DNA from: Planctomycetota bacterium
GTDB taxonomy: Bacteria; Planctomycetota; UBA8108; UBA1146
Length of the DNA stretch: 64,000 nucleotides
Direction: 5' to 3'
Assembly: GCA_965661685.1 (NCBI GenBank)
Contig: CBFIET010000122.1
Coordinates: 93,106 to 157,105 of the forward strand
The position numbers and the translations under genes were made by a program. Shown in pieces: positions 8,457-24,566 of the stretch. The notes beneath the pieces are model-generated. The model was given only the letters and a program-made list of their open reading frames with translations. It ran no database searches and was not told the DNA's origin. Numbering within the stretch: position 1 is the first letter of the stretch; each line of letters starts with the position of its first letter.

Positions 8457-8563
8457 TTGCGTCCTGTCCTGGCTCTGCTGTTGCAGGCCGATTCCACTGG
8501 ATACTTTTCCAGTGTCAGCGAGAATGAGGAGAACACCTCTCCCTCGAGTTAGGATACACATTC

Positions 8564-14110: not shown

Positions 14111-15208
14111 CTACTTCCGCATCTGCTGCCAGTACTCTGACGGCATCTCCTGGGCGAGTTTCAGAGCTCCTTGCGCTCCGGCGTACACTGCGTCGTCGAC
14201 GATGGTCACGCGACCTCCGCCCAGTTCCTGCAGTCCTCTCTCCAGTGCTTCCTGAAGACCGAATACCTGCGAACCACCGCCACTGACGATGACCCTGTTG
14301 CGGATCTTGTGCTGGAACTCGGGATCGAAGGTGGCAACCAGCGACTGAATTCCGCCGGTGATCGAAGGGATCAACTCCTCGACTGCCTGACGAATCTGGT
14401 CGGTGATATCGATCTCGGTCGGCTTTCCAGCGACCGGGAAGGTCACCAGTGCCCGCTTGTCGCTATCCACCACGCTGCTGAAGCGCTCCTTGGCCTTCTT
14501 GACCATGTTGTGTGTGAACTGCACGGCGGGGTGAGCCTCCTGGATCAACTTCATCAGCTGGCGATCGACGTAGTTTCCTGCCCGGAACAGGGTCACCTGG
14601 TCCTCGGCGTCGGGCAGGCTGCCCGCCATCCGGCACAGGTCGATGGTTCCCGCTCCGATGTCGATGACGATGGCGTTCTCCAGGGCGTCGAGGGCATAGG
14701 CAACCGCAAACGGCTCCGACACCACCATGACTCCCTCGATACCCGCCTCACGTGCCAGATCGACGATCGCTTGCTTGTTCTCTCTGGTCGCTTCTGCCGG
14801 GGCTCCGATGACGGCACACACCGCCTGATCGGGACGGGGGTTACACGACTGACGAAGGGCACTGAGAAGCGTGACTCCCGCCTTCCTCGACAGTTCCTTG
14901 GCGGAACCGTCCATCTCGGTGTAGGCGAGGTTGCCGTCCTTGAGAGGGAAACAACAGTTCAACGCCAGTCGATTCTCGTGAACCGAATCTCCTACCAGCG
15001 TGGCCGCGCCCAGTACCTTTGCGGAGACACTGTCCTTGGGCCAGCCGACCAGGCTCGCCATCACGTCTCTCGATCCATTGGATCCGGCGATGGCACTGCG
15101 ACTGGTTCCCAGGTCGATTCCCACGTGCAGGATACTGTTCTTCACATCGATCCGTGGCGTGGCTACGTCTCTGGTGTTCTTTGCTTTCAAGTTGTTTTCC
15201 GGGGTCAT
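14111..15208 (-). CDS. MamK-family actin-like ATPase (orphan, no magnetosome context)
   Basis: Colinear similarity to MamK over the whole length: VGIDLGTSRS (phosphate-1), VGWPKD, CAVIGAP, VVSEPFAVAY, IDIGAGTIDLC (phosphate-2), QVTLFRAGNYVD, IVSGGGS (adenosine), GALKLAQEMPSEYWQQM C-terminus. SD AGGAAGAAGAAGG upstream. Confidence 0.8.
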   Translation of the reverse strand: MTPENNLKAKNTRDVATPRIDVKNSILHVGIDLGTSRSAIAGSNGSRDVMASLVGWPKDSVSAKVLGAATLVGDSVHENRLALNCCFPLKDGNLAYTEMDGSAKELSRKAGVTLLSALRQSCNPRPDQAVCAVIGAPAEATRENKQAIVDLAREAGIEGVMVVSEPFAVAYALDALENAIVIDIGAGTIDLCRMAGSLPDAEDQVTLFRAGNYVDRQLMKLIQEAHPAVQFTHNMVKKAKERFSSVVDSDKRALVTFPVAGKPTEIDITDQIRQAVEELIPSITGGIQSLVATFDPEFQHKIRNRVIVSGGGSQVFGLQEALERGLQELGGGRVTIVDDAVYAGAQGALKLAQEMPSEYWQQMRK

Positions 15209-15210
15209 GA

Positions 15211-15903
15211 CTACCTACCTTCTTCTTCCTGCGAATCTGCAGACAGAGCACGAAGTGCTACGTTTGCCTGAAACAGTTGGTCCAGGAGTTCTGATTTCTT
15301 CGAATCAAATGGGGATTGCACCTCCAGAGCATCGATCCGTGGATCTCCACTGCTGGTGAGTGCGTTGTCGGTGGCCTGCAAGGCCAGGGTCAGTTCTTCT
15401 ATTCTCATCTCGAGCCTTTCGACCTGGTTTCTCTGGGAATCTCTTACCGTGGCAAGTTCTGATCGCCAATCCCGGGCGATCAGCTTGGAGAGTTGCACCA
15501 GTAGTGCTTTTTCCCGCTGGCCCAGTGCCGATTTCTGACCGCCTGCTGGGGCGGCTTCCTCCACCTGACGCTGTTTCGGACCAGGAACCTGAATTCTTGG
15601 TTTCGCGTCGACCGTTGCTTGCCCTGCTCCAGGCTCGACACTTCCTGGTGCTGCTGCCTTGAGATCCTCTCCCAGGCAGGCGTGAGCCCGCTGCAGCAGT
15701 CTCTGCCTCGCTTCAGCGGAGATCTCCACATCACCGAGGGTCTCGAGCAGAGCACGAGCCACCGCCTTGCGAGCGGCCTCCTGGAACTGACTCTGAGAGA
15801 CGACTCGCATCTTGCGAATCCCCTTCTCCTGGAGCTGTTCGAGGTGCTGAACGGAACTGTGGGGGAGCGACAGGGGTCCCTCGCTGGGATCGGCTTGCTG
15901 CAT
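15211..15903 (-). CDS. coiled-coil protein, upstream partner of the MamK-like gene (start chosen at ATG 15903 with GGAAAGGA SD; ORF extends to 15987)
   Basis: Heptad-rich translation (LEQLQEKGIRK..., ERLEMRIEELTLALQATDNAL). Its stop TAG lies 2 nt before the MamK-like ATG. No known domain recognised. Confidence 0.55.
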   Translation of the reverse strand: MQQADPSEGPLSLPHSSVQHLEQLQEKGIRKMRVVSQSQFQEAARKAVARALLETLGDVEISAEARQRLLQRAHACLGEDLKAAAPGSVEPGAGQATVDAKPRIQVPGPKQRQVEEAAPAGGQKSALGQREKALLVQLSKLIARDWRSELATVRDSQRNQVERLEMRIEELTLALQATDNALTSSGDPRIDALEVQSPFDSKKSELLDQLFQANVALRALSADSQEEEGR

Positions 15904-16316
15904 GTCGTTCCTTTCCTGGGGTGAAGGGTCTGTTTCCATGGCACTGCAGAGATAGGAGGCAAACGGCGTGCCCGGTCTCCGCACCACTTGAACAGCGCTC
16001 TGGAGGGGGCCCTGAAGAAGATGGAGCGGCGATTCCGTGCCAAAGCGGGACCCACTGTCGAGATCATTGACAATCTCGAGTCGTGCAGATCGATACTATT
16101 GGGGGGTGCCGAAAAGTGGCCTCAGGTGCTACAATATCTATGTCTGACCGTATTTCCGCCCGGAATTGCAGTCGGTATTGAGGAAGAAGAGCCCTGCTTT
16201 TACGCAATACGTCCCCCGTAGAGGCCTATAATGCGTTTCGGCCGTGCGCCTTGCTTTTGCCCCGAGCAACTTCTTCTTCCCGTCCGAAACCTCGAGCATC
16301 GACAGGAGAAATTGCC

Positions 16317-17627
16317 ATGACATTACGCCTCCCCCTGCTGGTCGGCTGGATCACCATCCTCGCCCTCGTCACTTCGACGAGCGTGGCACAGGATTACAAC
16401 TTTCACTTCGACACCACCGCCAGCGGACCTACCGGCTCCGTAATCACCACCCGGGCGCTGATCGACAATCCCGGGGGTCCCCTCGCTGGCTGGTCGATCG
16501 GGATCTGCCACGATGACAACATGGATTTCCTCGAGATCGCCGACGGCAATGCCCCGATGACTGCCAACGCTGGCGGTCCTGCTGACTTCGTCCAGACCAA
16601 TCACTACCCGGGATTCGGAGCCAATCAGGGTGTCGTGGTCAACTTCGTCGGAACAAACGAACTTCCCATCGCCACTGATCATGAAGCCATCACGATGCAG
16701 ACGATGCTGCTTGGACCTGACGACACCACCTCGTCGATGTCCTTCTGCAATGCCGTATTCCCCGGAGAAACGAGCGAATTTGAAAACCTCGCAGTGGCTC
16801 CAGGGGGTATCGCCATCGTTCCCACCATGATGGATGGAATCGTCGAGATCGGCGGATTGCTCCCCTTCGAGTTGAGCGCGGTTCCTTCCGCTCCTTCCGT
16901 CGAGCAGGGCAACTCCATCGACGTCCAGATCATGCTCAATGCACCGGCAGAGAACTACGGTTTCTCGCTGGGATTCGCCCATTCGGGGGCGTCCCTCACC
17001 CTCGTCGGTGCGGATATCGGTAGCGCACTCGCGGTTCTCAACGGTGGCTCCGGTCCGGAATACCTGACCCTGGACCTTGACCCCGAAGGAGCCAACGGCC
17101 TGATCGTCGCCTGCCTCTACTCCGTCTCCTCGCTGCTCGCGCTTCCCGCCGGAAACGGACAGGAACTGGTGGTGGCCCACTACGATGCGCCATCTACCGC
17201 CCCTCTGGGAATCACCGGGCTCAACTTCAGCGAGGACCTGGTGCCACAGTCACCTTCTCCGCCGACCGCGATCGTCATCTCTCTGGGCCAGACCTCCGGC
17301 CCGGTAGTGACCTCGGGAACCAGCATCGAGATCCTCGAAGGAGTGGTTGGAGTTCAGTTCCAGCGTGGCGACTTCGATGGAAGCGGATCCCTCAACCTGG
17401 GTGATCCCGTCAACCTGCTCGGCTACATGTTCAACGGTGGGGCAGCCCCCCTGTGCGAGAAAATCGGCGACATCGACGACAGCGGCAGCATCGTGCTGGG
17501 AGATCCGGTACAGCTGTTGACCTACATGTTCTCCGGTGGTTCTGCTCCGGCAGAACCGTTCGATCAGTGCGGAATCGACCCGACTGAAGACGATCTGACC
17601 TGTGAGGAGTTTGACGCCTGCCCCTGA
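16317..17627 (+). CDS. secreted protein with two cohesin-like modules and a C-terminal type-I dockerin
   Basis: ATG 16317 (MTLRLPLLVGWITILALVTSTSVAQ signal). Segments GWSIGICHDDNMDFLEIADG and NSIDVQIMLNAPAENYGFSLGFAHSGASLTLVGADIG resemble cohesin beta-sandwich signatures. C-terminal DFDGSGSLNLGDPVNLLGYMF + DIDDSGSIVLGDPVQLLTYMF dockerin repeats. Confidence 0.6.
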   Translation: MTLRLPLLVGWITILALVTSTSVAQDYNFHFDTTASGPTGSVITTRALIDNPGGPLAGWSIGICHDDNMDFLEIADGNAPMTANAGGPADFVQTNHYPGFGANQGVVVNFVGTNELPIATDHEAITMQTMLLGPDDTTSSMSFCNAVFPGETSEFENLAVAPGGIAIVPTMMDGIVEIGGLLPFELSAVPSAPSVEQGNSIDVQIMLNAPAENYGFSLGFAHSGASLTLVGADIGSALAVLNGGSGPEYLTLDLDPEGANGLIVACLYSVSSLLALPAGNGQELVVAHYDAPSTAPLGITGLNFSEDLVPQSPSPPTAIVISLGQTSGPVVTSGTSIEILEGVVGVQFQRGDFDGSGSLNLGDPVNLLGYMFNGGAAPLCEKIGDIDDSGSIVLGDPVQLLTYMFSGGSAPAEPFDQCGIDPTEDDLTCEEFDACP

Positions 17628-17668
17628 TCCTCATCGATCGAGGAACGGCAACAGGTTACTTCCCGACA

Positions 17669-18187
17669 ATGCGGCTCACTTCCTTCCCATGGCATCATCC
17701 ACTAAGATGCCGGAAGGAGGTCGAGGCCGTGGTCGAAACCGGTGCCATCGCGATTCGTTATCCACTTGAGAAATCCGCCCCCTCTCATCATGCAGAACCG
17801 CATCATGCAGAACCGCATCATGCAGAACCGCATCATCGAGAGCGGCATCCTTCAGATCCAGCGCCCCAATCACTGCTTGCCGATTCTCCATCTGCACAGA
17901 TTCCGCCGCTGGCAGGGGCGACCGTGACAGACTCCACCTCCGGCCTCAACAGTGGCGAAGCAAGCGACGATCCGGGTGTCATCGTGCTGCGCTGGTCGGT
18001 ACAGCCGGGAGAATCGATCGAGGCCGATCAGGAGTTACTGGTGCTAGCAGTGGGCAGCGAGGTCCAGGTGATCCGAGCGCCGGTTCCAGGTGTCCTCCTC
18101 AATCACTGGACGGAGGAGGGGGATCGACTCGGCCGGGGAGAAACCCTTGGATGGATCCGCCCCAGCTCCTCCGAGGCTGCGACGTAG
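17669..18187 (+). CDS. hypothetical protein with HHAEP tandem repeat and lysine-less biotin/lipoyl-like hybrid-barrel domain
   Basis: HHAEPHHAEPHHAEPHH repeat. C-terminal VIVLRWSVQPGESIEADQELLVLAVGSEVQVIRAPVPGVL resembles a biotinyl/lipoyl-attachment fold but lacks the modifiable Lys. Confidence 0.5.
   Translation: MRLTSFPWHHPLRCRKEVEAVVETGAIAIRYPLEKSAPSHHAEPHHAEPHHAEPHHRERHPSDPAPQSLLADSPSAQIPPLAGATVTDSTSGLNSGEASDDPGVIVLRWSVQPGESIEADQELLVLAVGSEVQVIRAPVPGVLLNHWTEEGDRLGRGETLGWIRPSSSEAAT
17786..17839 (+). repeat. perfect 15-nt tandem repeat (catcatgcagaaccg x3, plus a degenerate 4th unit) inside the CDS
   Basis: Directly visible at 17786-17830. Encodes HHAEP x3. Confidence 0.9.
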
Positions 18188-18597
18188 TTTCAACGACGCC
18201 TTCCGGTTACTTTCTTACCGCCTACTCGAGGCGCCACAGCGCAGTGGCCAGATTTATCCCGCATTCATAAGCCTATTTATGTAAATGGCTTAGGATCCAA
18301 GTTTCGGCCCCCCCTCATCGAACTGGACAGTTTCCAGCCACAACCCGTCGGCAAGCGACTTCTTGCCGGCTCAACCTCGACCCCTAAAGCCCTTCCAGGA
18401 AACCACTTAGACCTTTTAGGCGAATCCCTCATCGATTGGCACGGAGAGTGCTTTGTGTCAGTGGGCTCTTTGGGACAGGGGAGCTAGAGAGATCGCTTCT
18501 TCGGAAGTCCTCTCACGCAAGGTCATCGGGGCTGCAATAGCCTGATGAATCTCCCCGGGGCAGTCTAACTGCCCTCCTTGCTTCATTTCTTTCCGAG

Positions 18598-18634
18598 GAG
18601 GCGCCATTTCCCCGATGGCGCCTCTTTTTTTATT
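18598..18634 (+). terminator. rho-independent terminator (10-bp GC stem GAGGCGCCAT/ATGGCGCCTC, 7-nt loop, then TTTTTTTATT)
   Basis: Canonical hairpin plus U-tract on the + strand. Lies 410 nt downstream of the nearest + strand CDS stop (18187) and just outside the rodA 3' end. Confidence 0.7.
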
Positions 18635-18653
18635 CCATCTCCACCGGCACCAC

Positions 18654-19865
18654 TCAGGTGCGACCCACCTTGGCCCGGATCGGCCGATGGGTCACCTCGG
18701 AAGTTCCGCGCAGCAGTCCATCCGGATGGATCACCTCGACCGGATGGCGCGCGATGGAAACGACGATCCCCAGCGCCGCCAGCGACACGACGATGGAGGT
18801 TCCTCCATAGGAAACGAAGGGGAGGGGAAGACCCGTCACCGGCAGCAGGCCCACCGTCATCGACAGGTTGATGGCGGCCTGAAACCCGATCTGACTCGCC
18901 AGGCCTACTGCGACCAACCGCCCGAACGGATCTCGACAGTTCCATGCAACTCCCAGCATCGTCCACACCAGGACCAGGTATCCGATCACCACGGAAAGGG
19001 TTCCGATCAGTCCCAGTTCTTCGCCGATGACGGAGAAGATGAAATCGTTGTGGTCCTCCGGGACGTAGCCCAGATCATGGTGGCTTCCCATGTGCAGCCC
19101 CTTGCCGGTGGGGCCTCCGCTACCGATGGCGATGATCGATTGCGCCACCTGATAGCCTCCTTCCGATTCGCCGGAAACTTCACCGTACCCGACATAGGAG
19201 AGGATTCGATCCTTCTGATAGTCTCTCAATAGTGGCCAGCTGGCCGGGCCACCAATCACCGCCGCCAACACGATCAGTAGCAAAAACCTCCGCATCGAGA
19301 TCCCCGCAACCCACAGCATCATCACCGTGGTGGGGATCAGGATCAGCGCGGTGCCCAGGTCTGGCTGGGCTGCGATCAGCAGGAAAGGAATCGTGGCGAA
19401 TCCCACCCAGCGAACGATTTGCAGCCAACGGTCTACACCTTCACCGGGTCGAATCAGGTGAGCGAGGAACAGAACCGTGGATATCTTCGCAAGTTCCGAA
19501 GGTTGCAATCCGATTCCACCGAAGCGTATCCAGCGAACCACACCCGCTCCGGTGGCCCACTTCCAGAGCAGCAACAGCACCAGAAGTGCCACCGATGCAG
19601 CAAAGAAAACCTGTGCAACCTGACGGAATCGGCGTGGATGGACGAGGGAAATCGCCATCATGGCGACAACTCCCACGATGATCTTCTTGAGGTGGCTTGA
19701 TGCGTAGGGACCCGGGAATCCTGTCTCCGGTCCGTCCGCAGCACTGTGCACGAAGATGGTTCCCACCATCAGCAGCCAGACTCCTGCAAGAACCAGCAAG
19801 ATGGCGGGGCCAGCCCAACCATTCTTCCAGCCAGCGATCCAGTGCGTCAGATGAAGCGACGTCAT
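18654..19865 (-). CDS. rodA: rod shape-determining protein RodA (SEDS family); start at ATG 19865 overlapping the mrdA stop (ATGA), not the 574-aa ORF start
   Basis: MTSLHLTHWIAGW... with multiple TM segments. Conserved SEDS C-terminal region ...GGPTGKGLHMGSHHDLGYVPEDHNDFIFSVIGEELG. Confidence 0.85.
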   Translation of the reverse strand: MTSLHLTHWIAGWKNGWAGPAILLVLAGVWLLMVGTIFVHSAADGPETGFPGPYASSHLKKIIVGVVAMMAISLVHPRRFRQVAQVFFAASVALLVLLLLWKWATGAGVVRWIRFGGIGLQPSELAKISTVLFLAHLIRPGEGVDRWLQIVRWVGFATIPFLLIAAQPDLGTALILIPTTVMMLWVAGISMRRFLLLIVLAAVIGGPASWPLLRDYQKDRILSYVGYGEVSGESEGGYQVAQSIIAIGSGGPTGKGLHMGSHHDLGYVPEDHNDFIFSVIGEELGLIGTLSVVIGYLVLVWTMLGVAWNCRDPFGRLVAVGLASQIGFQAAINLSMTVGLLPVTGLPLPFVSYGGTSIVVSLAALGIVVSIARHPVEVIHPDGLLRGTSEVTHRPIRAKVGRT

Positions 19866-22015
19866 CGTCGTAACTCCATCCCTCGGTGCTCCTCGAGCCA
19901 GTCGAGTATTGAAGCGAGCAGTGGCGCACAGGCTTCCCCGCCATGCTGGGGCACATCCTGCAAGGAGATGGCAAAGGCAAACTTCGGCTCCACTACCGGG
20001 GTGAATCCGATCAACCATGCATGGTAACTGGGATCGGAGGAGATCTGAGCAGATCCTGATTTCACTGCCACGTCGAACCCCGAAAGACCGTAAGAAGATC
20101 GGGATGCGGTTCCTCCACGATCCCGTACCGCAGACACCATCCCATCGATCACACTTTCGAAATGACGCAACTCGATGGCTGGTTCCGCGGGTTCGCCGTC
20201 GATCGTTGCCACGACCTTGACCCCGGGAGAACTGCCACGACAGGCGATGCTCAACGCCACCCTCGCCATCTGCAGTGGCGTCACGGTGAAGCCGCGACCG
20301 ATGGCGGTGCCCACCGGGTTGGCCCGGGGTTTCAGGCCGATCGCCTCGGAGGCGATCCCGCTCCTGCTCGATCGCCACAGGCCCAGCGATTCGCCGGTAG
20401 CGATCATCTTGTCGATTCCCAGCCTCTGACCCATCTTGTAGAAATAAACGTTACAAGAGCGGGCCAGAGCCTCCGACAGATTGACGGAAAGGCCAGCGGG
20501 ATGATTGGTGCAGCGGCTCCGATCGGGCCGTCCAGGATCGAGCACACCGTTACAGACGATCTCGTCGTCAGCGGTGACCAATCCCTCCTGTAGAGCAGCG
20601 AGCCCGACCACCGTTTTGAAGGTTGAGCCGGGATCGACCGGCCACGAACTGACTCGATCATGAAACCAACCATCTCGAGATAGACTACGAGATCTGTACA
20701 GTTCACGGTCCTTGTAGACTTCCATCCCTTGCTGGGGGAGGGAGGCCCAGCCGAAAGCAGCGCCCGTATTGACGTCGAGCATCACGATGGCACCAGTTCG
20801 TACTCCCTGCGCTTGCATCTGATCGATACAAAAGCGGCTCAGTTGCGAGTCGATGGTGAGCTGGGTGTCCGATCCCTTGATGGCGTCTGCCACATCAAGA
20901 GCGGATCCAATCGATCGCCTGCGTTGATCGAGGATGCGAACCTCGGCGCCGGGAACTCCCCTGAGATCTTCCTCGAGAACCGACTCCAGCCCCGACCTTC
21001 CGACACGATCAGCGCTGTGATGAGAATACCTTCGAACCGCCTCGAAGACCCTCAGGTCGCGGAGAACCAGCCGGTCGATGATGGGTTCCTGCCGTGATTT
21101 CCAGGCGTCGACGATTTCCTCGCTGGGTAAGCCGGTATGTCCCAGCAATTGACCGAGAAAGGGGTCCAGTGGATGTACCCGGTCGTGGACTTCTTCCAGG
21201 TGAATACCAGGCCACTTTTCCGGTTCAGTACTGATGGCTACGACCAGAGAAGGGGGAACATCTTCGTGGAGGGGATGGCGCTGACGCCTGAAGACCCACT
21301 CTCGTTCCTGCAATTCCACAGCCGGATCCTGAACTCGGTCGTATGCCAGCTCGACCTTGCTCCACAGTTTCCCGGTCTCCAGTTCCAACACCTTTTCCAT
21401 CTTCCTGATACCGATCTCCCCGGCGAACAGGCCATCCGGATCGATGAAAATCGTGTAACTCTGACCAGCCTTGCTGGAGCGGATTCCCGGAAAGTCCTCG
21501 GGGCGTTTGGCGATGGCTCGGGCCACCGCTCTACCACACTTCGGATCGACACGGGTCAACCAGGGGTGCTCCTGATGATCGATATCGGTGGCGAACCTTG
21601 CCCTGATCTGCTCACGAGCTCCCTGAAGGGAGCTCCACAGGATCTCTTCATTCCAGGGGTAGCTGTCGTCAGAACTTCGCAGGATCTTGGTCAACCGCCG
21701 GGCGACCCACCGTACAGGTTCCAGTTCCGAAAGGAGAAAGGTGGCCCTCACAGCCGGTTCATCCCTGGCCAGAATGACTCCCCGAGCATCGACGATCTGT
21801 CCCCGAGGCGCGGGAGTGTAACGAATTGATCTGTGGATGCTGGATGCTCGTAAGGCATGGTCACGCCAGTCCATCCCCTGCAATTGCACAAGTCGAGCTG
21901 CGATACCCACAGACATCAGTAGGAACAGCACAGCGATGGGGATGATCCGGTTCCGCTGCATCAGATCCCCCCGTGGGATTTCGGAGTGCAGCGATTCACA
22001 GTGGATACCTCGCAC
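19862..22015 (-). CDS. mrdA: penicillin-binding protein 2 (elongation transpeptidase); alternative start at Met19 (~21961)
   Basis: N-terminal TM MQRNRIIPIAVLFLLMSVGIAARLVQLQ. Transpeptidase motifs STFK (GSTFKTVVG), SCN (ARSCNVYFY), KSG (VAVKSGSAQ). Confidence 0.85.
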   Translation of the reverse strand: MRGIHCESLHSEIPRGDLMQRNRIIPIAVLFLLMSVGIAARLVQLQGMDWRDHALRASSIHRSIRYTPAPRGQIVDARGVILARDEPAVRATFLLSELEPVRWVARRLTKILRSSDDSYPWNEEILWSSLQGAREQIRARFATDIDHQEHPWLTRVDPKCGRAVARAIAKRPEDFPGIRSSKAGQSYTIFIDPDGLFAGEIGIRKMEKVLELETGKLWSKVELAYDRVQDPAVELQEREWVFRRQRHPLHEDVPPSLVVAISTEPEKWPGIHLEEVHDRVHPLDPFLGQLLGHTGLPSEEIVDAWKSRQEPIIDRLVLRDLRVFEAVRRYSHHSADRVGRSGLESVLEEDLRGVPGAEVRILDQRRRSIGSALDVADAIKGSDTQLTIDSQLSRFCIDQMQAQGVRTGAIVMLDVNTGAAFGWASLPQQGMEVYKDRELYRSRSLSRDGWFHDRVSSWPVDPGSTFKTVVGLAALQEGLVTADDEIVCNGVLDPGRPDRSRCTNHPAGLSVNLSEALARSCNVYFYKMGQRLGIDKMIATGESLGLWRSSRSGIASEAIGLKPRANPVGTAIGRGFTVTPLQMARVALSIACRGSSPGVKVVATIDGEPAEPAIELRHFESVIDGMVSAVRDRGGTASRSSYGLSGFDVAVKSGSAQISSDPSYHAWLIGFTPVVEPKFAFAISLQDVPQHGGEACAPLLASILDWLEEHRGMELRR

Positions 22016-22475
22016 TCTTCAGGAACGGCCTCACGATATCGAGTACTGGCAACAGGATCGCTGTCACCACCGCACTCAAAAGCAACGCCGGAAACATCAT
22101 TTGAAAGGTGGGAAAGACGCCGGAAAGCATCGATTCCTGCACGCTGACGCCGATCAGCAGTGACGGCAAGATGATCTGAATACGACGATAAGGATGATGG
22201 GGATCGAACACGGTCTTGAGGAACCGAACGGTGAGTACCGTGCACAGCAATGGAACCACGGCATCGACGGGAGTTGTGATTCCGCCAAGACACCTGTGGG
22301 CAGCGACCACCACAATCATCAGCAAGAGACGTGGCCAGCGATCTACCAGTGCCATCCAGCACACGAAGATCAGCAGCGGATCGGCCATCCCGAGGGCTGG
22401 TTGCAACAATGGGCGAAACGCCACCCCCGTGAAGGTTGCCAGGATCATGATGAGGAACAACCATGAGAACCTCAC
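21996..22475 (-). CDS. mreD: rod shape-determining protein MreD (polytopic membrane protein)
   Basis: 159-aa protein, hydrophobic throughout. Positioned between mreC and mrdA with overlaps at both ends. Confidence 0.55.
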   Translation of the reverse strand: MRFSWLFLIMILATFTGVAFRPLLQPALGMADPLLIFVCWMALVDRWPRLLLMIVVVAAHRCLGGITTPVDAVVPLLCTVLTVRFLKTVFDPHHPYRRIQIILPSLLIGVSVQESMLSGVFPTFQMMFPALLLSAVVTAILLPVLDIVRPFLKSARYPL

Positions 22476-23182
22476 TGCGATCCACCTCTCGTCAGCGGCA
22501 CCAGTACCAGGACTTCCTGTACCTGTTTCAAACCCTGGCTGAGGAGGATCTTCGATTCTCGGTGGGGGATCCTGACCTCGCCAACGACACCGATCACCAG
22601 CCCCTCGGGAAAGACCGTGCCGCCACCATGGGTACGAATTACATCGCCGACGGAGAGGTCGATGTACTCCATGCGCAGGCGAGGATGCCCATGTCCTGGC
22701 CCAGGTCCACCTGCGAAGATCCCGGCACCGCCCTCCTCATCGAGGAAGGGAACCACGAAAGCAGGATCATCCGCCAGTTGAACCCTCGACCACCCCTGCT
22801 CGGAACGGACCACCTTTCCGATCACTCCGGAAGCTCCGATGATTCCCATACCCGGAGCGATCTCGACCTCTGATCCTCGATCAATACGGGCGGATGATCT
22901 CCTCGGATGAGGATCGAAGTGGGGGGTCAATCGTGCAGGGACCAGTTGATACAGCGTCCCTGCGAAGTCCGATGCGAGGTAGCGATCGATCAGATCCTGG
23001 CGCTCGATGAGTGCATCTTGTGAATCGCTGATCAGTTGCGTTCTCTGGAGAGCTTGTTCCAGAAGCTGGATGCGAACACGATCGGAGCCGGATGAGGACA
23101 CGAGGGGCTGAAGCCCGTAGCCGATCAGGGCCAGGACCAACCAGCAACCGATCGCCCAGTAAGCGCGTTCGATGCGCTTCAA
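22472..23182 (-). CDS. mreC: rod shape-determining protein MreC
   Basis: N-terminal TM followed by a coiled-coil (LLEQALQRTQLISDSQDALIERQDLIDRY), then C-terminal beta domains GDVIRTHGGGTVFPEGLVIGVV typical of MreC. Confidence 0.8.
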   Translation of the reverse strand: MKRIERAYWAIGCWLVLALIGYGLQPLVSSSGSDRVRIQLLEQALQRTQLISDSQDALIERQDLIDRYLASDFAGTLYQLVPARLTPHFDPHPRRSSARIDRGSEVEIAPGMGIIGASGVIGKVVRSEQGWSRVQLADDPAFVVPFLDEEGGAGIFAGGPGPGHGHPRLRMEYIDLSVGDVIRTHGGGTVFPEGLVIGVVGEVRIPHRESKILLSQGLKQVQEVLVLVPLTRGGSQ

Positions 23183-23214
23183 GTGACTCCCGTTCGGACC
23201 TGTCTATACGGTTC

Positions 23215-24252
23215 CTAGTAATCGTCGTCGACGGAGTCGAGGACGGAGGAATACTGATCCAGTTTCTCGAGGAATATGGCGGTTCCACGGGCCACGCAGG
23301 TGAGTGGGTCGTCTGCCACCCGCACCGGCAATCCGGTCACCTTCCGGATCGTCTCATCGAGACCGCGCAGTAACACGCCGCCACCACAGAGGACGATTCC
23401 ACGCTCCACCAGATCGGCACACAGTTCGGGGTCAGTCGTTTCAAGTGTCGACTTGATCCCTTCGATGATCTTGTCGACGGGGGGCTGCAGTGCCTCCCGG
23501 ATCTCTTCACTGGTGATTCGTGCACTGCGAGGAAGATTGCCGATGAGATCGCGCCCCTTCACCTCCATCTCGAGTTCCTCTTCGAGTGGGTAGGCGGACC
23601 CGATCCCGATCTTGATCTGCTCCGCAGTCAGCGGTCCAACCAGGATGTTATAGGTGTCCTTCATGTACTTGACGATCGCTTCGTCCATGTCATCTCCGGC
23701 GACGCGCAACGACACGCTGGTCACCACATCTGCCAGGGACAGTACTGCGATTTCTGTGGTTCCACCGCCGACATCCACGACCATGCTTGCGATCGGCTCT
23801 TCGATGGGCAATCCAGCACCGAGACCGGCAGCTCGCGGCTCTTCCACGAGGTAAACCTTGCGAGCACCGGCACGCTCCGCAGAGTTGTAGACGGCACGCT
23901 TCTCCACTGCTGTGATCCCGCTGGGAACAGCGATCACAACACGTGGGCTGAAAAATCTGGATCGGTTTTGCACCCTCGTGATGAAGTACTTGAGCATCGC
24001 CTCGGTGATCTCGAAATCGGCGATGACTCCATCCCGGAGGGGACGGACCGCTTCGATGGAGGTGGGGGTTCTGCCCATCATCTCCTTGGCGACACTGCCG
24101 ACAGCTCTTCCATCGAGAAGTACCTGGTTGGTACCTGCTTTGACCGCCACCACCGATGGCTCGCTGATGACGATTCCTCGCCCACCAACACAAACGAGGG
24201 TGTTGGCAGTTCCAAGATCGATACCAAGATCAGTAGAAAACTTCCCCACCAA
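23215..24252 (-). CDS. mreB: rod shape-determining actin MreB (start likely TTG 24252 or GTG 24249; the ORF to 24423 has no plausible upstream Met)
   Basis: LVGKFSTDLGIDLGTANTLVCVGGRGIVISEPSVVAV... Full-length MreB with all actin-fold motifs. Confidence 0.9.
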   Translation of the reverse strand: MVGKFSTDLGIDLGTANTLVCVGGRGIVISEPSVVAVKAGTNQVLLDGRAVGSVAKEMMGRTPTSIEAVRPLRDGVIADFEITEAMLKYFITRVQNRSRFFSPRVVIAVPSGITAVEKRAVYNSAERAGARKVYLVEEPRAAGLGAGLPIEEPIASMVVDVGGGTTEIAVLSLADVVTSVSLRVAGDDMDEAIVKYMKDTYNILVGPLTAEQIKIGIGSAYPLEEELEMEVKGRDLIGNLPRSARITSEEIREALQPPVDKIIEGIKSTLETTDPELCADLVERGIVLCGGGVLLRGLDETIRKVTGLPVRVADDPLTCVARGTAIFLEKLDQYSSVLDSVDDDY

Positions 24253-24566
24253 GGCCTGTGTGAAATTCTGTGCGATACGGAAAACCAAGATATGATCTCC
24301 TCGTCCGATCCCTGCCGGCACCGTGGTGCTGGCATCGAGATCAGTTTCCCCTTGAGGACTCCTGTCCTCTTTCCCACTTCGAACTCCCGCAAATTCCGGC
24401 AGGCACTCGCACCTGCTTGCCATGATATTGCATCACGGACGGGATTCCCTCACTGCTGCGCCCTGTATCATAAGCAGGAAAATGGCCGGAGGCGAGGGAC
24501 TAACACCGATCCTTGTCGCAGGAAGGAATGCGCTCGACCGCCGATCTCCGATGCGGACAGGCGCAA

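Follow-up and report, generated by a model that had tools for sequence, protein, structure and literature searches.

A conserved structured RNA gene with a predicted sigma-54 promoter beside the mreBC-mrdA-rodA operon of Planctomycetota

Small RNA (sRNA) genes that depend on sigma-54 and are controlled from multi-site enhancers are well known in Proteobacteria, and the principle is not new. Planctomycetota are ecologically important bacteria with an unusual cell biology and few described riboregulators; full-text literature searches returned no description of a Planctomycetota small RNA or of a sigma-54-dependent RNA of Planctomycetes. The locus described here lies in a stretch of 64,000 nucleotides (nt) from a Planctomycetota bacterium (GenBank assembly GCA_965661685.1, contig CBFIET010000122.1, positions 93,106 to 157,105 of the forward strand), which is called the window and to which all coordinates refer. 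The interval 18188–18653, the gap between two convergent genes, carries a conserved, structured, non-coding and independently terminated RNA on the + strand. This RNA is conserved far above its surroundings and represents a new family, absent from Rfam, within the familiar class of sigma-54-dependent sRNAs. The interval as a whole is probably one complete regulatory-RNA locus, composed of an enhancer-like region, a sigma-54 promoter, a structured RNA of ~170 nt that would act in trans, and the RNA's own terminator.

GlmY and GlmZ (RF00128/RF00083) are, like the RNA described here, stand-alone sRNAs of ~150–200 nt that fold into several stem-loops and end in an intrinsic terminator. At the sigma-54 promoters of glmY and glmZ, three GlrR sites far upstream and two IHF sites flanking the third of them (ABS3) were shown experimentally (PMC3045617). 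The layout at the planctomycete locus is almost the same, with three distal candidate activator sites and two further sites that flank the third. Only the promoter architecture is analogous. The GlrR sites of glmY/glmZ are TGTC-N10-GACA, whereas the candidate activator sites found here are GG-N11-CC (consensus GYGGTYANNTTYTAACCRC); the dyads found here do not match the IHF consensus, no glrK/glrR-like gene is adjacent, the phylum is a different one, and the RNA has no sequence or structure match to GlmY or GlmZ (no Rfam match at E≤10). GlmY and GlmZ are linked to the cell envelope; in the present locus this link is given by synteny only.

Qrr RNAs are ~100 nt long, often multi-copy and Hfq-dependent, and qrr1 adjoins luxO. 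The Qrr RNAs of Vibrio (LuxO-sigma-54; RF00378) are comparable to the RNA proposed here in their dependence on sigma-54 and an enhancer-binding protein, their action in trans, their invariant single-stranded seed and their terminator. Unlike them, the planctomycete RNA is present in a single copy, is ~170 nt long, has no adjacent activator and has no Rfam match. The regulation of Qrr1 by enhancer-binding proteins is described in PMC10162802. CrcZ and CrcY of Pseudomonas (CbrB-sigma-54) are protein-sequestering sRNAs and served as the model for one of the alternatives weighed below. CrcZ is ~400 nt long, carries repeated A-rich motifs and is encoded downstream of cbrB. No array of repeated motifs and no Rfam match was found for the RNA described here. 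Dependence of CrcZ/CrcY on sigma-54 and on upstream activator sites is described in PMC6296734.

MmgR/'suhB' (RF00519) of the alpha-proteobacteria shares with the planctomycete RNA a hairpin, a C/U-rich single strand of the UUUCCUCC type and then a terminator. It gave the best sub-threshold Rfam match (20.3 bits against a gathering threshold of 41, E = 0.21), which is confined to helix P4, linker and terminator in the window RNA and was not repeated in a homologue of another clade; the family is ~77 nt long and belongs to a different phylum. Membership in MmgR/suhB, which is below threshold, and in GlmY/GlmZ, which gave no match, was rejected.

Conservation and structure of the RNA

A scan of species-representative genomes with RodA gave 58 loci, mostly from marine Planctomycetota metagenome-assembled genomes (MAGs); a pattern scan of metagenomes added 10 further loci (68 in total, cited by L numbers where needed). 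By blastn and nhmmer over 18 genome loci, only the 3′ ~200 nt of the intergenic DNA (~18432–18631) was found to be conserved, with 79–96 % identity where RodA is 63–90 % identical and 73 % where RodA is 51–62 % identical. A covariance model built from 15 sequences detected one full-length copy per locus (161–199 bits) in 28 syntenic loci from marine Planctomycetota MAGs and metagenomes; the 23 distinct sequences among them were used for the structure alignment. Identity to the window copy is 75–98 % for the RNA, 53–85 % for the rodA coding sequence (CDS) and 49–59 % for the upstream 250 nt. The covariance model found no second copy elsewhere in the 64-kb window and none beside rodA in more distant Planctomycetota (given as L016–L031), and viral contigs gave 0 matches.

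A preliminary description of the interval, made from the sequence without database searches, had proposed ~400 nt of non-coding, hairpin-rich DNA as a candidate sRNA or cis-regulatory RNA. An independently terminated RNA gene on the + strand was indeed found, although with a length of ~170 nt (18463–18631) and not ~400, and ~200 nt are kept in related genomes (28 loci), with covariation. The first 250 nt do not behave as structured RNA; they behave as a DNA control region, with 49–59 % identity and short motif islands only. The cis-regulatory reading is excluded, as no gene follows on the + strand, and a riboswitch or leader was rejected for the same reason, the next gene, rodA, being convergent. 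The RNA could not be matched by eye to RNase P, tmRNA, SRP or 6S; this agrees with the Rfam 15 scan, which gave 0 gathering-level matches across the whole window. At E≤10, the segment 17500–18800 gave only sub-threshold matches, mostly over the terminator (mmgR, BjrC80, ncS54), and a homologue searched in the same way gave nothing consistent.

The start of the RNA gene was predicted from promoter geometry (18461–18464) and its 3′ end lies in the U-tract. It opens with an invariant 5′ segment of 21 nt, GGGCUCUUUGGGACAGGGGAG (18463–18483), which differs in a single clade only, by A instead of G at 18480. Helix P2 (18489–18514) is a hairpin with a stable tetraloop that alternates between UUCG and GAAA among clades; double changes were found in 6/8 of its pairs. 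The invariant linker GCAAG (18517–18521), complementary to an invariant CUUGC at 18578–18582, is followed by helix P3 (18523–18548), in which 8/9 pairs show double changes and the conserved GCAAN loop (18534–18538) keeps an invariant GCAA. Helix P4 (18557–18575) shows double changes in 5/8 pairs, with 99.5 % of cells paired, and contains the GGGCAG-tctaa-CTGCCC hairpin (18559–18575) that had been listed beforehand. An invariant C/U-rich stretch, CCUUGCUUCAUUUCUUUCC (18576–18594), is unchanged in 22/23 distinct sequences and leads into the intrinsic terminator (18595–18631) with a 14-bp stem, the loop region AUUUCCCCGAU and a U7 tail. Apart from the 5′ 21 nt and the GCAAG linker, the invariant blocks comprise CUUGCUUCAUUUCUUUCC and the entire terminator including its loop.

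Standard pairs occupy 95.7 % of the cells in the 23-sequence alignment, compared with 49–54 % when the partners are slid by 1–3 columns. In the model-based alignment of these sequences, changes on both sides were found in 21/45 pairs, and 0/500 column shuffles matched the observed covariation score. Compensatory changes back the three internal hairpins P2, P3 and P4, which covary strongly, and one double change backs the terminator stem. Folding of the + strand gave z = −3.25 against shuffles for 453 nt and z = −4.36 for the 172-nt RNA alone, whereas the − strand folds no better than shuffles (z = −1.39); overall, fold z-scores range from −3.2 to −5.1.

The rho-independent terminator that had been recognised on the + strand is present. 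Its 14-bp stem (18595–18627) includes 7 G-C pairs and is followed by T7 (to 18634); pairing in the stem is complete (100 %) and includes a single double change, from C-G to U-A, the loop is invariant, and the element is kept in all loci. In the terminator scan it was the only terminator-like site in 16000–21000. The crude terminator pattern is not enriched (1 found against 3.7 expected in shuffles); the terminator is convincing because of its length and its invariance across loci.

The pairing of the 5′ segment is ambiguous. In one fold, GGGGAG of the 5′ segment pairs with CUCCCC at 18551–18556 to form helix P1, and where A replaces the G at 18480, CUCCCC carries U in place of C; the replacement at 18480 also improves an alternative 5′ hairpin. 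In this alternative fold, GGGGAG closes the 5′ hairpin with a GGGACA loop, shown as a hexaloop in the minimum-energy fold, and GCAAG pairs with CUUGC. Both folds are compatible with every sequence, and each is represented in the minimum-energy and centroid predictions. The pairing GCAAG:CUUGC is part of both the RNAalifold consensus and the minimum-energy fold and is possible in 100 % of the 23 sequences; its two sides never vary and hence show no covariation.

Both predicted folds leave UUCAUUUCUUUCC unpaired, with a mean probability of 0.6–0.9 across homologues. Together with the CCCU before it, the C/U stretch reads CCUCCUU and resembles an anti-Shine-Dalgarno sequence; ribosome-binding sites of the AGGAGG type are used by the organism, one of them at 17716–17721 upstream of the small open reading frame (ORF) that precedes the locus. 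The RNA has the U7 tail and the invariant UUCAUUUCUUUCC, which is predicted to be accessible. The C/U-rich stretch is a candidate seed, a candidate Hfq-type binding module, or both.

Promoter and upstream control region

In sigma-54 promoters, a GG and a GC doublet lie one helical turn apart, and transcription starts ~12 nt past the GC. A + strand sequence of this type, TGGCACGGAGAGTGCT, is located at 18437–18452, with GG at 18438–39 (−24 element) and GC at 18450–51 (−12 element). It is the key feature that was absent from the preliminary description. It deviates from TGGCAC-N5-TTGCW only at the first T of TTGC and is the sole match with ≤1 mismatch to TGGCACG-N4-TTGCW in the 64-kb window. Directly upstream of the RNA, the aligned loci read TTGGCACG-N4-(A/G)TGCT, with TGGCAC and TGC invariant in 18/18 and a spacer of variable sequence and fixed length. 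A variable stretch of 9–10 nt follows the promoter, and the invariance of the RNA resumes with GGGC at 18463, 12 nt after C18451. With C18451 taken as −12, transcription would therefore start at ~18463 and yield a transcript of ~170 nt.

The strict pattern is found once before each RNA gene that has it, with one other occurrence in the 68 loci, inside a coding region. No sigma-70-like promoter was found in 16000–21000. We strongly infer that transcription starts from ~18463 at a sigma-54 promoter and is gated by an activator. The sigma-54 consensus is TGGCACN5-7TTGCT; sigma-54 regulons have been predicted across Planctomycetia, and RpoN is reported to be widespread there (PMC12316311).

In a relaxed scan, two-mismatch sigma-54 matches occurred in the window at chance rate. 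One of them, TGGCTCTGCTGTTGCA at 8470–8485 (+), lies ~45 nt upstream of an ORF starting near 8528 and is of chance-rate quality. A second exact match to TGGCAC-N6-TGCW, at 19576–19591 (−), lies within the rodA CDS, where it codes for a hydrophobic stretch, and is most likely due to chance.

The 250 bp at the 5′ end of the intergenic region show little conservation outside five motif islands, which lie at near-fixed distances from the predicted start. The islands were found by using alignment-free regular expressions and were found again in a MAFFT alignment of 23 sequences; their spacing is constant within 2 nt in most lineages, in surrounding sequence that is only ~50 % identical. Three of the islands are GG-N11-CC motifs in one orientation, which share the consensus given above and are candidate sites for a bacterial enhancer-binding protein (bEBP). 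Site 1 (GGTTACTTTCTTACC, 18205–18219, centre ~−251) is matched between −255 and −259 in almost every distinct upstream sequence, with GG and CC conserved in ≥90 % of the 23 sequences. Site 2 (GGCCAGATTTATCCC, 18246–18260, centre ~−210) is the least conserved of the three and lies between −213 and −217 in most lineages. Site 3 (GGACAGTTTCCAGCC, 18325–18339, centre ~−131) has a match at −136 to −138 in most sequences, the most distant clade included. A position weight matrix scan found no further copies above shuffle level in the window, and the sites matched no known activator consensus.

The other two islands are TAA-N19-TTA dyads, candidate sites for a second or architectural DNA-binding protein. 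Dyad A (18268–18292, centre ~−183) corresponds to the AT-rich near-palindrome TAAGCC...GGCTTA, which is present as had been noted. Its TAA and TTA are ≥90 % conserved in the 23 sequences, with the exact 19-nt spacing in most, and its interior varies freely. Of the two roles suggested for it, that of an operator fits, the outer TAA/TTA being fixed in most of the 23 sequences; that of a promoter does not. Dyad B (18385–18409, centre ~−66) has the same spacing and lies between site 3 and the promoter; roughly half the sequences of the close clade carry it at −76/−77, and it is degenerate in the remaining ones, those of the most distant clade among them.

An inverted repeat, CGGCAAG-N6-CTTGCCG (18349–18368), lies between site 3 and dyad B. 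All hairpins listed beforehand are present. The GGGCAG...CTGCCC hairpin proved to be the covarying helix P4, whereas CGGCAAG...CTTGCCG is lineage-specific and lies outside the conserved design: a comparable hairpin is found in the window, L001 and the L012 group only and is absent or insignificant in other lineages. Stable hairpins or palindromes of unrelated sequence occupy the same position (~−110 to −90) in only a few lineages (window, L001, L012, L062, L065).

Sites for bEBPs are usually found ~80–250 bp upstream of sigma-54 promoters. We infer that the control region combines enhancer sites with binding sites for an architectural protein. Binding by such proteins is put forward from the architecture, because the site sequences differ from the known ones, no IHF match was found, and no activator gene is present in the window or the loci.

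Mode of action and alternative explanations

In the proposed mechanism, a bEBP encoded elsewhere would bind the GG-N11-CC sites at ~18200–18410 and a second or architectural protein would bind the TAA...TTA dyads; together, the two proteins would make the RNA a signal-induced on/off transcript. The sigma-54 (RpoN) promoter would start the transcript at ~18463, and the transcript would end at its own rho-independent terminator, facing the 3′ end of the mreBC-mrdA-rodA operon. The accessible invariant C/U stretch CCUCCUUGCUUCAUUUCUUUCC is hypothesised to pair in trans with purine-rich ribosome-binding regions of target mRNAs, and the invariant GCAAG together with the 5′ hairpin may form an alternative fold that partly masks this stretch.

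The locus is complete and precisely delimited, and its RNA is conserved more strongly than the adjoining essential gene. The covariance model is ready for the annotation of MAGs, and searches for the sigma-54 activator and the regulon that it controls in these uncultured bacteria could start from the unvarying promoter and enhancer motifs. The constant position of the RNA gene next to the elongasome operon suggests a connection with cell-wall growth that can be tested.

Several points weigh against a sigma-54-driven RNA that pairs with mRNAs. The start site, the 3′ end and the sigma-54 dependence are all predictions. The −12 element has A or G where the consensus has T, and the dyads fit no known activator or IHF consensus, the E. 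coli IHF sequence WATCARNNNNTTR being found in the control region only at 2 mismatches. A six-frame search of the 64-kb window and of the ~9-kb loci (68 loci) revealed neither rpoN (RpoN box) nor a GAFTGA-type activator gene; known sigma-54-dependent sRNA genes often adjoin their activator gene. A duplex-energy scan gave no convincing target site for the C/U stretch in the window, and no neighbouring start region stood out. Helix P1 is backed by a single compensatory event, and an equally compatible alternative fold competes with it. A simple seed model would not require the entire 5′ segment and the terminator loop to be invariant, which leaves room for a protein-binding mode of action.

In such a mode, the same sigma-54-driven sRNA would mainly bind or sequester a protein, either of the CsrA/RsmA type or another RNA-binding protein, with the G-rich 5′ segment presenting GGA/GGGGAG, for example in the GGGACA loop. 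The invariant 21-nt 5′ end, the GCAAG linker, the GCAA loop and the terminator loop together exceed the need of a single seed, and the minimum-energy fold displays GGGACA in a hexaloop. Pirellula sp. strain 1 is reported to have a csrA gene with a promoter of the sigma-54 type, as cited in PMC12316311. Only two or three GGA motifs are present, however, where known CsrA sponges have many, and the GGA of the P2 loop is not conserved. Protein sequestration as the main function is considered unlikely.

A further reading, which is offered as a speculation and is quite improbable as a whole, would make the RNA a bistable riboregulator that links an envelope or cell-shape signal, sensed by a sigma-54 activator, to gene expression. 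In function, the system would correspond in Planctomycetota to the envelope-homeostasis circuit of GlmY/GlmZ, and it would be kept beside mreBC-mrdA-rodA. The 5′ hairpin and GCAAG:CUUGC would form the masked state, and GGGGAG:CUCCCC would form the open state that frees the C/U seed, with the switch driven by a protein or a target RNA.

That the RNA lacks a promoter of its own and is the 3′ untranslated region (UTR) of the upstream + strand gene, or a processed fragment of it, is very unlikely. In its favour, the lipoyl-like and dockerin-like genes upstream share the strand of the RNA, there is no intervening terminator, and 3′-UTR-derived sRNAs are common. Such an origin is disfavoured because of the promoter and the clade-dependent upstream gene: the invariant sigma-54 promoter stands exactly at the onset of conservation, and the immediate upstream gene differs between clades while the RNA and its motifs stay fixed. 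The lipoyl-like ORF is absent in the clade of L015, L022–L024 and L061, where the RNA and its upstream motifs are unmoved. Moreover, apart from motif islands of a DNA type, conservation is poor across the 250 nt that separate the CDS from the RNA.

Also very unlikely is an action in cis on the convergent mreBC-mrdA-rodA operon, in which the element would be an antisense or collision partner or a shared bidirectional terminator. The element lies tail-to-tail with rodA in 28/28 loci, down to 51 % RodA identity, with 19–22 nt between the rodA stop and the RNA 3′ end in the window, and the terminator hairpin is invariant, its loop included. Across loci, however, this gap ranges from 14 to 199 nt; the hairpin has no U-tract after it on the − strand, and no − strand terminator was found in the scan. 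Coupling by antisense is disfavoured because the gap is variable and a − strand terminator is lacking. The RNA does not overlap the rodA coding sequence, and the scan with the C/U stretch gave no strong complementarity to the start regions of the operon genes.

A small protein, encoded by an ATG-initiated 49-codon ORF on the − strand (18458–18607) or by a short + strand ORF, is effectively refuted: the 49-aa ORF is not conserved, its homologues carrying frameshifts and in-frame stops, with only the first 10–11 residues conserved and length differences that are not multiples of three, and the helix substitutions are compensatory and no Pfam match was found. The statement that no credible ORF spans 18188–18597 holds, as only ORFs of ≤51 aa overlap this segment and the 49-aa one is broken in homologues.

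Neighbouring genes

On the − strand, the RNA faces the complete cell-elongation operon (18654–24432), of which rodA (18654 to ~19865; FTSW_RODA_SPOVE, 7e-86) is the last gene, with its 3′ end at 18654. Beyond rodA follow mrdA/PBP2 (19862–22015), an unassigned ORF in the mreD position (21996–22736, no Pfam match), mreC (22472–23203) and mreB (23215–24432). On the other side, a small + strand ORF with a weak biotinyl/lipoyl-like domain (17669–18187) stops at 18187. The synteny is constant in the loci: mrdA-rodA, the element on the opposite strand, the optional lipoyl-like ORF, and a secreted protein with dockerin-like repeats.

The C-terminal ~60 aa of the lipoyl-like ORF are conserved between loci and its N-terminal half is poorly conserved. 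The ORF contains a tandem 15-nt repeat, CATCATGCAGAACCG, at 17771–17860 (3 good and 2 degenerate copies), which codes for a His-rich (HHAEP)n stretch. The secreted protein (16317–17627, +) has an N-terminus that resembles a signal peptide and, at its C-terminus, two dockerin/EF-hand-like repeats (GDxxxxGxxxxxD...LLxYMFxGG), with no Pfam match; it shows 49–95 % identity among loci and is syntenic with the sRNA throughout.

Two of the loci come from MAGs labelled 'Bacillota bacterium' (L012, QNYK01000062.1) and 'Proteobacteria bacterium' (L017, JAFMMO010000107.1). These taxonomy labels are probably wrong, because both mrdA-rodA loci are planctomycete-like and L012 also carries the sRNA. In the window, a divergent second actin-like gene (14111–15214, −) lies ~3 kb from the sRNA locus; it matches MreB_Mbl (4.7e-22) and, weakly, Salactin and Alp7A.

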